Shown here piece after piece: positions 62,226 through 64,000 of a stretch of DNA of 64,000 nucleotides (its first letter is position 1; each line of letters starts with the position of its first letter). The translations under genes were made by a program, and so were the position numbers. The notes beneath the pieces are model-generated. The model did no database searches. It saw only the letters and a list, made by a program, of their open reading frames with translations, and was not told the DNA's origin. Source of the stretch: Promethearchaeati archaeon SRVP18_Atabeyarchaeia-1 (lineage in GTDB: Archaea > Asgardarchaeota > Atabeyarchaeia > Atabeyarchaeales > Atabeyarchaeaceae); contig CP147779.1 in assembly GCA_037308085.1 (NCBI GenBank), positions 384,001-448,000 on the forward strand, given 5' to 3'.

Positions 62226-62630
62226 GGGTCCGTAGCTCAAGGTGGAAGAGCGCGAGTCTAGCTCCCACCCTTGCGGGGAGTTCAAATAGAGATTAGTGAA
62301 ACGAATGACTTGTCAGAAAAGTCATGCCGTATAACCAGGAAAGGGTGATTGCTTCAACTTCGCGAGATCTGCGCCGTAATCATTTCTATAGAAACCTTAT
62401 GTATCCCAGTTGGTGATCTTGCGATGCCAATGATCTTTCTTGGTGAGATTGTTTTCGACAGGACATTATTCACGATTGACTTGGCAAACTAGGTGCTAGA
62501 TCTGGACTCAACAATCAACTGGACCATAATAGATCTGAAGGGAGAATATCTGACCCGAATAGCTTCGAATTTTGGGGATCCATCCGAGTCCTCAGGTCAG
62601 AGCTACGACGACAGTATATCGCTAGGACCG
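62226..62630 (+). pseudogene. Degenerate, hairpin-rich tRNA-like element (intact 5' acceptor strand and D arm)
   Basis: GGGTCCG TA GCTC AAGGTGGAA GAGC G, then scattered tRNA-like pieces (ATAACCAGG 62331, AGATC 62531, GGACC 62625) separated by hairpins. Confidence 0.45.
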
Positions 62631-62658
62631 AGAGATTGGCTGGAAAGGGTGTGGGTGA

Positions 62659-63582
62659 TTGAGGACTAACACAGTCCATCCGAATTTGAGGACTAAGTAC
62701 TTCCTTGCAATTGACACGAAAGAAAAAGCGTATTGGCTCGGATTTCTGTTCGCCGATGGCTGTATCATAAGACACCCCAGAACAATACAGATTCAACTCA
62801 AACTTAGACGAGCCGACGAAGAAACCATTGACAGATTCTGCGAGTGTCTCAGGCTTGAAAAGGGCAAAAAGGATTACGTTCGAGAACGCGAAAAGGATGG
62901 AACAATATCAGAGAAGATCAGAATCAGATTTGCCAGCAGAGAAATGGGAAGGAGTCTCCTAAAGCACGGGTTAGAGTTTCGGAAATCGAAAATCATTGAA
63001 TATCCGAGATTACCCCGTCGACATCTGGAGCTTGCGTTTCTATTGGGATACTATGATGGCGATGGACTGCAGAATACGACAAGAATCAACTCCGGCAGCG
63101 TCCGATTTCTGGAACAGGTCAAGGAGAGATTCAACTTGCCTTACAAAATCCAGTTGAATAAACGCAAAACCGTATTTCATGGCAGAGAGATAGAAGGCAC
63201 AGAGTACTACATGTGCTTGGGCCCTGAGCTGTTCAATGAGATGATGAGAGACTATGCAGGAAGCATGCCTAGGAAACGTTGGTTCCCATGCGATTCAAAG
63301 GAAAAACTGCGCAGGCACCGTGAGGCTTGCACATCCGAAATGACTCAGAGAAGAAGAGGACTGCAGAAGGATTGGAGAGCCATCACGAGGGATAAACTAG
63401 AAAGATTAGTATGGCAAATGCCGTTAGCACATATCGCCATTAGATACAACGTCAGTAATGTGGATGTTATAGCGAAAAAGTGTGAGAAGCTTGGTGTTTC
63501 CAGACCAGAACATGGTTACTGGCAAAGACAATACTGGATAAACCGGAGATCCTTAGGAAAGAGTTCAATACAGAATAAATAG
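62659..63582 (+). CDS. Double-motif LAGLIDADG homing-endonuclease-like protein with C-terminal HTH
   Basis: AYWLGFLFADGCI and LAFLLGYYDGDG; C-terminal ITRDKLERLVWQMP...IAKKCEKLGVSRP..GYW. Confidence 0.85.
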   Translation: MRTNTVHPNLRTKYFLAIDTKEKAYWLGFLFADGCIIRHPRTIQIQLKLRRADEETIDRFCECLRLEKGKKDYVREREKDGTISEKIRIRFASREMGRSLLKHGLEFRKSKIIEYPRLPRRHLELAFLLGYYDGDGLQNTTRINSGSVRFLEQVKERFNLPYKIQLNKRKTVFHGREIEGTEYYMCLGPELFNEMMRDYAGSMPRKRWFPCDSKEKLRRHREACTSEMTQRRRGLQKDWRAITRDKLERLVWQMPLAHIAIRYNVSNVDVIAKKCEKLGVSRPEHGYWQRQYWINRRSLGKSSIQNK

Positions 63583-63795
63583 TTCCCTACTTCGAAGTGA
63601 AGGAAATAATATATCCTCTCCGCGATATTCTCCTTTTTTCCCTCCTTCTTCAATCTCTGCTGAGAATTCTTGATTCCCTGCAACCCCATTTACGAACATC
63701 ACTACTAGGTATTTCAAAACTTCAATTCTGTCCCAGATAACCCCTGGTCATGGCTAAGGTTTCTGTAATCTGAAGAGGGAGTTGAAGGATACACC

Positions 63796-63802
63796 TTATA
63801 TA
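63796..63802 (+). promoter_or_regulatory. TATA box of tRNA-Ile
   Basis: TTATATA about 27 nt upstream of the tRNA 5' end. Confidence 0.55.
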
Positions 63803-63828
63803 CATGTTTTTGGCAACTCATCTAACGC

Positions 63829-64000
63829 GGGTCCGTAGCTCAAAGCGAAGACATCAAGGTGCGTCTTCACTGGCAAAGCTTGGCTAGAGCGTTCGGCTGA
63901 ACATCAAGAGCAACTGGAAGAGATGGGCCAATAACCGAAAAGGGAAGGCTCAGTCAGGAGAAGCCTGCCGTAGGGAAAGATCGCGAGTCCGAAACTCGCC
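63829..64000 (+). tRNA. tRNA-Ile(GAT) with three introns: 63843-63877 (14/15), 63901-63931 (35/36, inside the anticodon), 63940-63977 (43/44); 3' end beyond the window
   Basis: Spliced product GGGTCCG TA GCTC AGCTTGGCTA GAGC G TTCGG CTGATAA CCGAA AGATC GCGAG TCCGAAA CTCGC C... Confidence 0.88.

Follow-up and report, generated by a model that had tools for sequence, protein, structure and literature searches.

A candidate gene-end-replacement homing element at the tRNA-Ile(GAU) gene of Ca. Atabeyarchaeum deiterrae-1

A LAGLIDADG-HTH gene, probably free-standing, lies directly upstream of the tRNA-Ile(GAU) gene in the 2.8-Mb genome of Ca. Atabeyarchaeum deiterrae-1, and the old 5′ end of this tRNA gene is found beside valS, on the far side of the insert. 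We propose, with a probability of roughly 0.55, that the locus is a partly decayed homing element that has no integrase and takes the end of a gene as its insertion site, here the 5′ end of a tRNA. Homing by gene-end replacement has been described in the nuclear genomes of yeasts and in fungal mitochondria (PMC7282813, PMC3630166), and requires neither intron nor intein nor integrase. The layout of the yeast WHO elements and mitochondrial mORFs, in which an endonuclease gene sits beside its target and a duplicate of the displaced end remains on the far side, is present at the tRNA-Ile locus and recurs at tRNA-Met, at tRNA-Trp, at the L034 tRNA, at the tRNA-His promoter and at the 3′ end of a protein-coding gene. 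Moreover, both occupied and empty alleles occur among close relatives, the target gene being intact in both (Ile, Met, Trp, Arg(TCT), His and 825-kb sites).

The locus was analysed in a window of 64,000 nucleotides, the whole stretch of DNA studied here, and compared with a congener (G001), with the sister-genus genome Atabeyarchaeia-2 (G002) and with a further relative (L116). Its features are:

60021..62177, + strand: valS (main reading frame); ORF list; orthologs in G001 contig C38 and in G002, 65-66% amino acid identity
62178..62225, + strand: ancestral valS/tRNA-Ile spacer; by-eye comparison with G002 459373-459472 and G001 C38 5896-5790
62226..62269, + strand: orphan tRNA-Ile 5′ fragment; exact repeat and similarity to the G002 tRNA-Ile start
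62382..62633, + strand: HerA-like ATPase pseudogene remnant; tblastn with the intact G001 and L116 proteins, 43-50% identity, E 9e-19
62493..62669, + strand: 58-aa chimeric ORF; ORF list, no Pfam match
62659..63582, + strand: predicted LAGLIDADG-HTH homing endonuclease gene; ORF list, Pfam, alignment, AlphaFold2, Foldseek
63583..63828, + strand: endonuclease 3′ flank; about 72% nucleotide identity with G001 C38 across 62663-63905, 69% with L116
63829..64000, continuing to about 64052 past the window, + strand: functional tRNA-Ile(GAU); read with the downstream DNA and aligned to the G002, G001 and L116 genes

The valS/tRNA-Ile interval and its repeat

An earlier note on this DNA had reported a 15-bp direct repeat around the endonuclease gene. 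The sequence GGGTCCGTAGCTCAA indeed occurs exactly twice on the + strand of the 64-kb window, at 62226-62240 and 63829-63843, where about 0.13 matches would be expected by chance even with two mismatches allowed and where two or more matches were obtained in 1 of 100 shuffles. In the whole 2.8-Mb genome, its first 10 bases followed by a tRNA-like continuation are present at these two sites only. The copy is exact, as claimed, but it is not a random repeat: it consists of the 14-nt exon 1 of tRNA-Ile(GAU) and one further base. On the right, it is the start of the real tRNA-Ile(GAU) gene and runs on into its D-loop intron. This gene contains four introns, with exon 1 at 63829-63842, the D-loop intron at 63843-63877, an anticodon intron at 63901-63931, and two further introns, the third following the anticodon arm and the fourth within the T-loop. 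It is the sole tRNA-Ile(GAU) copy found in the source genome. Because of its introns, it was missed by ARAGORN and Rfam, which likewise did not detect the left fragment, and it does not figure in the published tRNA table.

The left copy, located 1603 nt upstream of the start of the real gene, had been described as a decayed tRNA-like copy, and we can now identify it as an orphaned 5′ piece of tRNA-Ile. The two copies share the same exon 1, and the bases that follow it differ (AGGTGGAAGAG on the left, AAGCGAAGACA on the right). On the left, positions 62241-62269 form a hairpin (GGTGG..GAGC / GCTC.CCACC) similar to the D-loop intron of the sister genus. Alignment with the start of the G002 tRNA-Ile gene extends over 28 nt at 89% identity, including 8 of the first 10 bases of the G002 intron; beyond about 28 nt, similarity to tRNA-Ile is no better than that of shuffled sequences.

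Other identities of this fragment were considered and rejected. A complete decayed tRNA-Ile found no support: past the first 15 nt, neither global nor local alignment exceeded shuffles, and only the 10 bases following the repeat, in fixed register (8/10 against the G002 intron), are suggestive. A split tRNA, with the left fragment joined to a distant 3′ half, was discarded after listing every CGGACCC in the genome, since a T-arm and CCA were found at the real tRNA-Ile only. In a separate search for a donor tRNA with the D-arm GCTCAAGGTGGAAGAGC, matches occurred solely inside a protein-coding gene, and this idea was rejected. A heuristic of our own, based on T-arm plus acceptor, gave 16 hits genome-wide, 14 of them true tRNAs, and was abandoned.

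Comparison with relatives indicates how this arrangement may have arisen. valS is the constant left neighbour of the locus in the three Atabeyarchaeia genomes compared (3/3), and nucleotide synteny at valS stops at 62089. The empty site that the earlier note had proposed to look for exists in G002, where valS is followed by 97 nt and then by tRNA-Ile, tRNA-Ala and 16S, with no insert. The left 15-mer occupies the position equivalent to the start of the G002 tRNA-Ile, and the spacer that precedes it is homologous. In the source genome this spacer (62178-62225) has undergone a deletion of about 45 nt and has kept a TATA-like AGATTCTATGTTG matching ATCTTATATTG of the relatives; the spacers of the source genome, G002 and G001 all close with GTG then G. 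The 63583-63828 flank of the endonuclease gene is conserved in G001 and L116 and bears no relation to the spacer found ahead of tRNA-Ile in G002. It carries a T-rich terminator-like stretch and a TATA-like CTTATATA at 63795-63802, the promoter now serving tRNA-Ile.

Both G001 and L116 possess an orthologous endonuclease gene ahead of tRNA-Ile, in islands that are larger (5.7 kb in G001) and that also encode a HerA-like ATPase and two unassigned ORFs. The ATPase, which matches Pfam DUF87/HerA and PADLOC HerA, is intact in both. In the source genome its remnant covers only residues 37-128 of about 440, with the Walker A motif destroyed and one in-frame stop. The 58-aa ORF at 62493-62669 is probably not a gene: it is a HerA remnant fused to the out-of-frame remains of the N-terminal WY..W extension of the endonuclease family, and when paralog upstream regions are aligned its DWLERVW matches ERWYEKW in another frame. 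G001 has no left exon copy and carries a second copy of the endonuclease 3′ flank instead, so that the history of the locus must be more complex than one insertion. The locus is itself degraded, with its cargo deleted and a short repeat, and its value lies mainly in this three-way comparison between empty site, full island and decayed island.

The endonuclease and its family

The two-motif LAGLIDADG ORF of 307 aa with a C-terminal HTH, reported in the earlier note, was confirmed, and the gene is intact. Its start codon is a TTG placed directly behind a TGA. The ORF matches Pfam LAGLIDADG_3 with a score of 28.5 bits (cut-off 22.5), and both LAGLIDADG motifs retain their acidic residues (YWLGFLFADG and LAFLLGYYDGDG). 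D33, G34, D135 and G136 are invariant in 23 relatives, D33 and D135 being the catalytic aspartates. The AlphaFold2 model (pLDDT 91.5) displays the order of helices and strands expected for the two-fold alpha-beta-beta-alpha-beta-beta-alpha LAGLIDADG fold, followed by a helical C-terminal part (residues 213-306); weak matches to HTH families were obtained in relatives. Foldseek matched the model to I-SceI, the bI3 maturase, I-DmoI and I-Tsp061I at a probability of 1.00, and the nearest solved relatives by sequence profile are I-DmoI and I-Tsp061I (E 2.5e-5 and 3.6e-4). Against the G001 ortholog, dN/dS is 0.155 and dN is 0.18, as compared to 0.17 for valS; on this coding-sequence comparison the gene has remained under purifying selection. 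Judged from the catalytic aspartates, the fold, the relatives and the dN/dS, the endonuclease looks active. A near-identical contig from another sequencing run carries a 4-nt deletion in the gene.

The suggestion that this protein travels with tRNA genes is supported by the genomic context of its homologs. It belongs to a well-supported clade of 21 members, 17 of which have a tRNA gene at a distance of 500 bp or less, as opposed to 1 of 38 sequences outside the clade. Copies adjoining tRNA genes make up three of the five paralogs in the source genome, five of the six in the congener, and the single one in Atabeyarchaeia-2. Apart from two MAGs labelled bacterial, the clade is composed of Asgard-labelled sequences only, and its catalytic aspartates are conserved. 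The three closest genomes harbour between 1 and 6 copies each, including a stop-interrupted copy in G001 and a truncated one in the source genome. Since the paralogs are mutually only 50-60% identical, no recent transposition within a genome is seen.

Occupancy differs between genomes at several of these sites. The source genome is empty where G001 has copies at tRNA-Met, tRNA-Trp and tRNA-Arg(TCT); conversely, the site of the source copy beside tRNA-His is empty in G002 and G001, and that of the source copy at 825 kb is empty in G002. The bracketing duplications differ in length and position. At the G001 tRNA-Met, a 115-nt 5′ part, ending in the T-loop at an intron position, precedes the endonuclease gene, which is followed by the complete tRNA-Met; the single-copy equivalent of the duplicated part is located at 810391-810505 of the source genome. 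Duplicated segments are also seen in L034, where the segment is a 26-nt tRNA 3′ end, and in G001 and L032, where they are parts of tRNA-Trp. Two paralogs of the source genome are bracketed by a duplicated tRNA-His promoter (paralog c) and by the duplicated 3′ end of a protein-coding gene (paralog d). A GC-rich structured region upstream of paralog b gave no Rfam match even at an E of 10.

The earlier note had also seen in this gene a candidate agent of intron spread, an idea that our results do not support. Clade members in Loki-, Hel- and Hod-type genomes adjoin tRNA genes with no ARAGORN-called intron, and the tRNA-Met has the same three introns in an occupied and in an empty genome. The T-loop intron of tRNA-Ile is present in the source genome and in L116 and absent from the empty G002 allele; despite this, no consistent pattern emerged. 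Except for repeat ends located near intron positions, no link between the endonuclease gene and intron gain was found.

Alternative readings of the locus

The repeat could be explained by a local duplication of tRNA-Ile followed by decay of one copy, the LAGLIDADG-HTH protein being a resident, possibly domesticated, WhiA-like DNA-binding protein whose gene simply happens to occupy intergenic DNA rich in tRNA genes. WhiA is a conserved single-copy bacterial regulator and reportedly has lost its catalytic residues. The succession of a LAGLIDADG scaffold and a C-terminal HTH is the same in both proteins, with a whole-length match of WhiA to our model (fold match, rank 37), and the long-term purifying selection fits a resident function. 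The copy located at tRNA-Arg(CCT)/tRNA-Asp shows stable synteny across genera, and cross-genus synteny of some copies is indeed also compatible with a domesticated gene. Nevertheless, the endonuclease family keeps invariant catalytic aspartates, unlike WhiA, and behaves as a mobile multi-copy gene: copy number ranges from 1 to 6 in the three closest genomes, with some copies interrupted or truncated and a 4-nt deletion allele; presence or absence is seen at at least five loci with clean empty sites; and bracketing duplications recur at unrelated genes. We consider local duplication an unlikely explanation.

The island might otherwise represent a tRNA intron of giant size, used with an alternative 5′ exon. 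In transcripts initiated at the former tRNA-Ile start, the splicing endonuclease would cleave after 62239 and 63877, left exon 1 would be joined to exon 2, and the 1.6-kb intron released, probably circular and encoding the LAGLIDADG enzyme, would resemble crenarchaeal rRNA introns. Left exon 1 is 15/15 identical between flanks that have diverged, which, on a dS-based estimate, is unlikely by neutral decay since the split from G001. Pairing is possible between AGGTGGAAGAGCGC, which follows the left exon, and GCGTCTTCACT, the 3′ arm of the small D-loop intron; with a shared AGCT/GGCA central helix and 3-nt bulges, this pairing would form a bulge-helix-bulge motif at 62239/62240 and 63877/63878. 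The long-range duplex has a predicted energy of -21.7 kcal/mol (31-nt 5′ context) versus -14.1 for the right copy (23-nt), values that are not strictly comparable, and -21.7 kcal/mol corresponds to about the 5th percentile of random 31-mers. In addition, the truncated tRNA-Met copy of G001 shows 0/61 exon changes versus about 10 in about 50 intron positions, as if its exons were still used. However, complementarity of the arms is expected from the common ancestry of the intron hairpins; in a read-through transcript, the right exon, being identical and nearer, would win the competition for pairing; the only promoter-like feature evident before the left copy is a degraded TATA-like box; and the G001 ortholog, whose gene is under the same selection, has no upstream exon copy. 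Because of this last observation, a free-standing gene is favoured over the relic of a large intron, and we regard the giant intron as quite improbable. We hold equally doubtful the broader scenario in which the orphan exon is still in use, the island is a giant intron and the family cuts tRNA exon-intron junctions, variable introns conferring resistance. Were this junction-cutting scenario true, it would provide a selective reason for Asgard tRNA introns to arise and persist.

Finally, the remnant of an integrase-type island at the 5′ end of tRNA-Ile, with the 15-mer as att core, a lost integrase and the LAGLIDADG gene as cargo, would account for the exact tRNA-end direct repeat around a variable island, a classic attL/attR picture, and for the larger islands of the relatives with their HerA-like ATPase and two unassigned ORFs, but we give it little credence: the endonuclease family is the sole constant gene at about ten other loci, and the repeats vary (promoter only, 26 nt, 115 nt, protein-coding 3′ end) in a way that a fixed att core does not explain. 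As the earlier note had stated, there is no integrase-like ORF between the repeats (ORF list, Pfam); no integrase domain was found either in the fuller 5.7-kb G001 island, whose 298-aa and 211-aa ORFs match no family, and no integrase family appears in the stored Pfam annotation of the L116 island.

Proposed gene-end replacement at tRNA genes

The preferred reading, homing by gene-end replacement, is built by analogy with the yeast WHO elements and the fungal mitochondrial mORFs. The enzyme would cut an unoccupied allele within or beside the 5′ part of the tRNA gene, probably near the junction between exon 1 and the D-loop intron, where the exon sequence is fixed and the intron varies between alleles. 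Repair templated by the occupied allele would then bring in the endonuclease gene along with a substitute promoter and 5′ end, so that the tRNA would stay intact and the old 5′ end would be displaced. In this lineage the insert may also have brought the HerA-like ATPase and other ORFs that are intact in two relatives, and a deletion in the source lineage would have removed most of this cargo, joining what is left of the ATPase to the beginning of the endonuclease gene. Homing of the WHO type needs a difference in resistance between the alleles; as the exon-1 copies are identical, we infer that this difference is only possible in the intron or the promoter. At the G001 tRNA-Met, it is the truncated upstream copy that contains the divergent intron, not the complete copy, the opposite of what one would expect if the fungal model were simply mirrored.

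In Torulaspora and Lachancea yeasts, the 3′ end of FBA1 is replaced at each integration of a WHO element (Coughlan et al. 2020; PMC7282813). On the proposed reading, the two systems share a free-standing gene of LAGLIDADG ancestry that lies beside its target with no intron, protein splicing or integrase, integrations that each exchange an end of the target and leave the former end as a remnant, and a set of genes and pseudogenes that differs among closely related species. WHO proteins derive from inteins and are fused to zinc fingers, whereas the Atabeyarchaeum protein is compact, I-DmoI-like and two-motif, and ends in an HTH domain. WHO elements affect the 3′ end of a single protein-coding gene, as opposed to the 5′ end and promoter of a tRNA and to many tRNA genes, and cleavage has been demonstrated for WHO6, whereas the Atabeyarchaeum endonuclease is known from its sequence and model.

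Fungal mORFs carry a duplicated gene C-terminus (Allomyces atp6; Glomus atp6, atp9, cox2 and nad3; PMC3630166). There too, a LAGLIDADG or GIY-YIG ORF is located at a gene end, between the inserted and the native copy of that end; in fungi the native end is displaced and unexpressed, and related species have an uninterrupted gene. These cases concern organelle genomes, protein-coding genes and C-terminal ends. The inserted fungal end is clearly foreign (64-81% identical to the native one), whereas at tRNA-Ile the two exon copies are the same and the differences are confined to intron and promoter.

In phages T4/T6, cleavage within a tRNA gene cluster by the SegB endonuclease gives rise to tRNA-segB duplications (PMC2330249, PMC13096335). 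SegB is likewise encoded by a free-standing homing endonuclease gene among tRNA genes; it cuts the tRNA-gene DNA of relatives, and its activity generates duplications of tRNA plus endonuclease segments by homologous recombination. In contrast, SegB belongs to the GIY-YIG family and to a phage genome, and its duplications are tandem arrays selected by a defence system rather than single repeats of a gene end bracketing the gene. I-DmoI and I-Tsp061I are monomeric two-motif enzymes with a core of similar size; they are encoded inside bulge-helix-bulge rRNA introns, whereas the Atabeyarchaeum gene is outside any demonstrated intron, beside tRNA genes, and its product is extended by a C-terminal HTH domain of some 100 aa.

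We found no paper describing gene-end-replacement homing in archaea or at tRNA genes. The endonuclease genes are not mentioned in the two Atabeyarchaeia genome papers nor in a 2026 preprint on Asgard tRNA introns, and a paper on Atabeyarchaeia mobile elements mentions neither LAGLIDADG genes nor tRNA-targeted elements. If confirmed, our reading would mean that an almost exclusively Asgard-labelled clade of LAGLIDADG-HTH proteins shapes the tRNA loci of the prokaryotes most closely related to eukaryotes, and would account for the orphan tRNA pieces and duplicated promoters found around endonuclease genes. It would also provide natural nucleases that probably recognise tRNA-gene DNA, and would connect selfish nucleases, in a way that can be tested, with Asgard tRNA genes being unusually intron-rich and fragmented.

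The valS–tRNA-Ile locus

The genome of SRVP18_Atabeyarchaeia-1 is a single contig of 2,808,651 bp (window, G000:C1:384001-448000), and the tRNA coordinates in the window agree with those published for Ca. Atabeyarchaeum deiterrae, 'Atabeyarchaeia-1' (PMC11291895 Supplementary Data 4). The 15-bp repeat that an earlier note had placed around a LAGLIDADG ORF was found as described: GGGTCCGTAGCTCAA occurs at 62226 and 63829 and nowhere else in the window. The left copy is an orphan beside valS; the right copy starts a functional tRNA-Ile(GAU). After the endonuclease gene come this intron-rich tRNA gene, tRNA-Ala(CGC) and the 16S rRNA gene. 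tRNA-Ile was not recovered by ARAGORN or Rfam, and it is absent from the published list of 40 tRNAs (PMC11291895 Supplementary Data 4). Its structure was read by alignment to its orthologs and comprises four introns, two of them beyond the anticodon intron.

Features of the locus (window coordinates; tRNA-Ile exon and introns from the alignment to orthologs)
62382-62633: HerA-like ATPase pseudogene remnant (residues 37-128; Walker A destroyed, in-frame stop)
Between the two 15-mer copies: 58-aa ORF
62659-63582: 307-aa endonuclease ORF, also between the 15-mer copies
63829-64000, on to ~64052: tRNA-Ile(GAU) (genome 447829-448052)
63829-63842: tRNA-Ile exon 1
63843-63877: tRNA-Ile D-loop intron
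63901-63931: tRNA-Ile anticodon intron

Since exon 1 ends at 63842 and the intron starts at 63843, the repeat corresponds to exon 1 plus one base. U55 is near-universal in tRNA T-loops; that of tRNA-Ile reads TCCGAAT, with C at this position. The central helix of its T-loop intron is changed in a matching base (TCCG/CGGA here, TTCG/CGAA in metagenome contig L116), and tRNA-Ile of Atabeyarchaeia-2 (G002, sister genus) lacks this intron. The valS gene itself is broken into two frames, 59675-59950 and 60021-62177 (window 59675-60024).

The endonuclease and its family

The 307-aa protein scores above the Pfam LAGLIDADG_3 threshold and carries both LAGLIDADG motifs. In an alignment with 22 relatives, D33 and D135 are invariant, the SMPRKR stretch is conserved and the C-terminal helical domain ends in P..GYW. 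In the AlphaFold2 model (mean pLDDT 91.5), each of two halves has the order alpha-beta-beta-alpha-beta-beta-alpha, and six helices come after them; Foldseek matched it to I-SceI, bI3 maturase, I-DmoI and I-Tsp061I, and to WhiA across the whole length, and a profile search gave I-Tsp061I and I-DmoI as top solved structures. The ORF starts with TTG immediately after a stop codon. As several relatives likewise begin only a few residues ahead of the conserved TVHPN, its core is complete. The N-terminal WY..W extension typical of most paralogs is present here only out of frame, within the 58-aa ORF.

Five family copies are present in this genome, six in its congener (G001) and one in G002. Here copies adjoin tRNA-Ile, tRNA-His/Ala/Leu and tRNA-Arg(CCT)/Asp, in G002 tRNA-Arg(CCT), and in G001 the tRNA genes Ile, Met, Trp, Arg(TCT) and Arg(CCT); the gene also lies beside tRNA genes in three unrelated long metagenome contigs. 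A large protein search returned 352 matches, and the organism names among the matches listed were all Asgard lineages; in a scan of genome contigs, 2 of 80 loci came from MAGs labelled bacterial. An ARAGORN-called tRNA lay within 500 bp at 20 of 80 loci from species-representative genomes. On the maximum-likelihood tree, tRNA-adjacent members make up 17/21 of one supported clade (98/91) versus 1/38 outside it, and the adjacency label requires 5 changes, against 15.5 in shuffles. These genes are not mentioned in either Atabeyarchaeia genome paper or in the 2026 preprint about tRNA introns of Asgard archaea, and a full-text literature search on archaeal tRNA genes with an adjoining free-standing LAGLIDADG gene turned up nothing of relevance.

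Upstream of paralog b lies a GC-rich, apparently structured stretch of ~260 nt (GGGCCTTGGGGTGAGACCGCGCGG..., L002:2560-2830, genome ~784,300-784,560, minus strand), which has no Rfam match at E up to 10. GCCCGGGAGCCGCAAC, which resembles SRP RNA, lies within it, and the stretch could be an intron-containing gene for a stable RNA.

Occupied and empty sites in three lineages

In G002, valS is followed by 97 nt, tRNA-Ile, tRNA-Ala and 16S; the insert is absent, so that the empty site the earlier note had suggested looking for in relatives does exist. The G002 tRNA-Ile has three introns, the same D-loop intron among them. In our window, the left copy lies directly 3′ of the ancestral valS spacer, whose end reads GTG then G in 3/3 genomes. 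Over 28 nt from its first base it agrees at 89% with the beginning of the G002 tRNA-Ile gene, and past the repeat 8/10 bases equal the G002 intron start (versus 3/10 and 5/10 for the two other genes). A hairpin similar to the intron hairpin comes next; the bases for a 3′ splice site are absent. Beyond that region no similarity to tRNA-Ile rises above shuffles, and a 3′ acceptor strand for the left copy was found neither nearby nor elsewhere in the genome. We take the left copy to be the native 5′ end of tRNA-Ile, now displaced. The promoter before the functional gene, with a TATA-like box at 63795-63802, is conserved in the three occupied lineages and unrelated to the G002 spacer, as expected if it had arrived with the insert. 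As a less likely rival, the insert could be a giant tRNA intron whose 5′ exon is an alternative one: the sequence allows a splice motif, and the exon copy shows perfect conservation, but this copy is missing at the G001 ortholog.

In G001 (C38), the order is valS, the same spacer, a second copy of the endonuclease 3′ flank, a 440-aa HerA-like ATPase, 298-aa and 211-aa ORFs, the endonuclease (an ortholog, 70% aa identity) and tRNA-Ile. Of this flank, 136 nt occur twice, right behind the valS spacer and behind the endonuclease gene (L030 5761-5626 and 302-165, 73% identical), which points to a previous or a second insertion into this site. L116 holds the same island, with HerA-like gene, 298-aa-type ORF (86% identical), endonuclease, tRNA-Ile, tRNA-Ala and 16S. 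Only a remnant of the ATPase persists here; a deletion has therefore taken most of the cargo and joined this remnant onto the front of the endonuclease gene. A former integrase island is a less likely rival; an integrase was looked for and none was found in the island here or in G001.

Compared with the G001 ortholog, dN/dS is 0.155 for the endonuclease and 0.094 for its core, and its dN (0.18) is similar to that of valS (0.17). Despite the cargo loss, purifying selection has thus acted on the gene ever since the two species diverged. L117, a Logan contig from another sequencing run (SRR29366191), shares 99.3% identity with the window. Its codons 182-189 (window 63204-63225) hold a cluster of three substitutions and a 4-nt deletion, splitting the gene into 193-aa and 121-aa ORFs; the cause is a dead allele carried by a sister population or, alternatively, an assembly artefact.

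Duplicated gene ends and a proposed mode of insertion

Sites at tRNA-Met, tRNA-Trp and tRNA-Arg(TCT) are uninterrupted in this genome and occupied in G001. Conversely, the site of our copy at tRNA-His is empty in G002 and G001, and that of the 825-kb copy is empty in G002. Decayed copies include a 5′-truncated one here, two with a stop in G001 and possibly L117 with its 4-nt deletion. Plain duplication with a domesticated protein, likewise a less likely rival, is at odds with this gain and loss of copies and with the conserved catalytic residues.

Duplications bracket other copies as well, the 15-nt repeat at tRNA-Ile being the shortest example. At the G001 tRNA-Met, a 115-nt 5′ part (from about -25 to the T-loop, the point of the intron in the complete gene) lies upstream of the endonuclease and a complete tRNA-Met downstream; the single-copy counterpart here is 810391-810505. 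In L034 the duplicated part is a tRNA 3′ end of 26 nt; internal parts of tRNA-Trp are duplicated around the G001 and L032 copies, and here the tRNA-His promoter region stands on both sides of paralog c. Paralog d, which does not adjoin a tRNA gene, has on either side a diverged copy of the final ~25 codons of a protein-coding gene (..NIMRIIIAREVLGKE..; L004:1130-1210 and 2740-2830, genome ~824,750-826,450); G002 has a single copy of this gene end and no insert. More distant relatives of the family, in MAGs of Loki-type and further Asgard archaea (L077, L078, L082), have bracketing repeats of 47-127 nt that look protein-coding by eye.

Two introns deserve separate mention. The T-loop intron of tRNA-Met echoes the start of the preceding exon (genome 810484-810565; L014/L038), with ATCCGGAGATCGCG occurring first where exon 3 begins and a second time over the boundary between the 3′ end of the intron and exon 4, as if born of a local duplication. 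The tRNA-Trp intron, common to both copies around the endonuclease (L032:3145-3233 and 5091-5179; tRNA-Trp here at genome 792777-792982), contains C/D-box-like elements (ATGATGA ... CTGA), like the guide RNA known from archaeal tRNA-Trp introns.

The earlier proposal of the enzyme as an agent of tRNA intron spread is not supported: the sole hint is that the ends of the repeats fall near intron positions, which is also expected if homology or a cut site stops where variable intron sequence starts.

In yeast WHO elements, the 3′ end of FBA1 is replaced at every integration (PMC7282813), and fungal mitochondrial mobile endonuclease ORFs come with a gene end and push its native counterpart aside (PMC3630166). 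Phage SegB, a free-standing enzyme encoded in a tRNA cluster, cuts tRNA-gene DNA, with tRNA-endonuclease duplications via homologous recombination. Because the layout found here is that of WHO elements and the mitochondrial ORFs, with SegB as a precedent at tRNA genes, we favour homing by gene-end replacement, for which we infer the cleavage, repair and resistance steps. In contrast to FBA1, where a 3′ end is exchanged, the insertion here would have replaced the 5′ end of tRNA-Ile together with its promoter.
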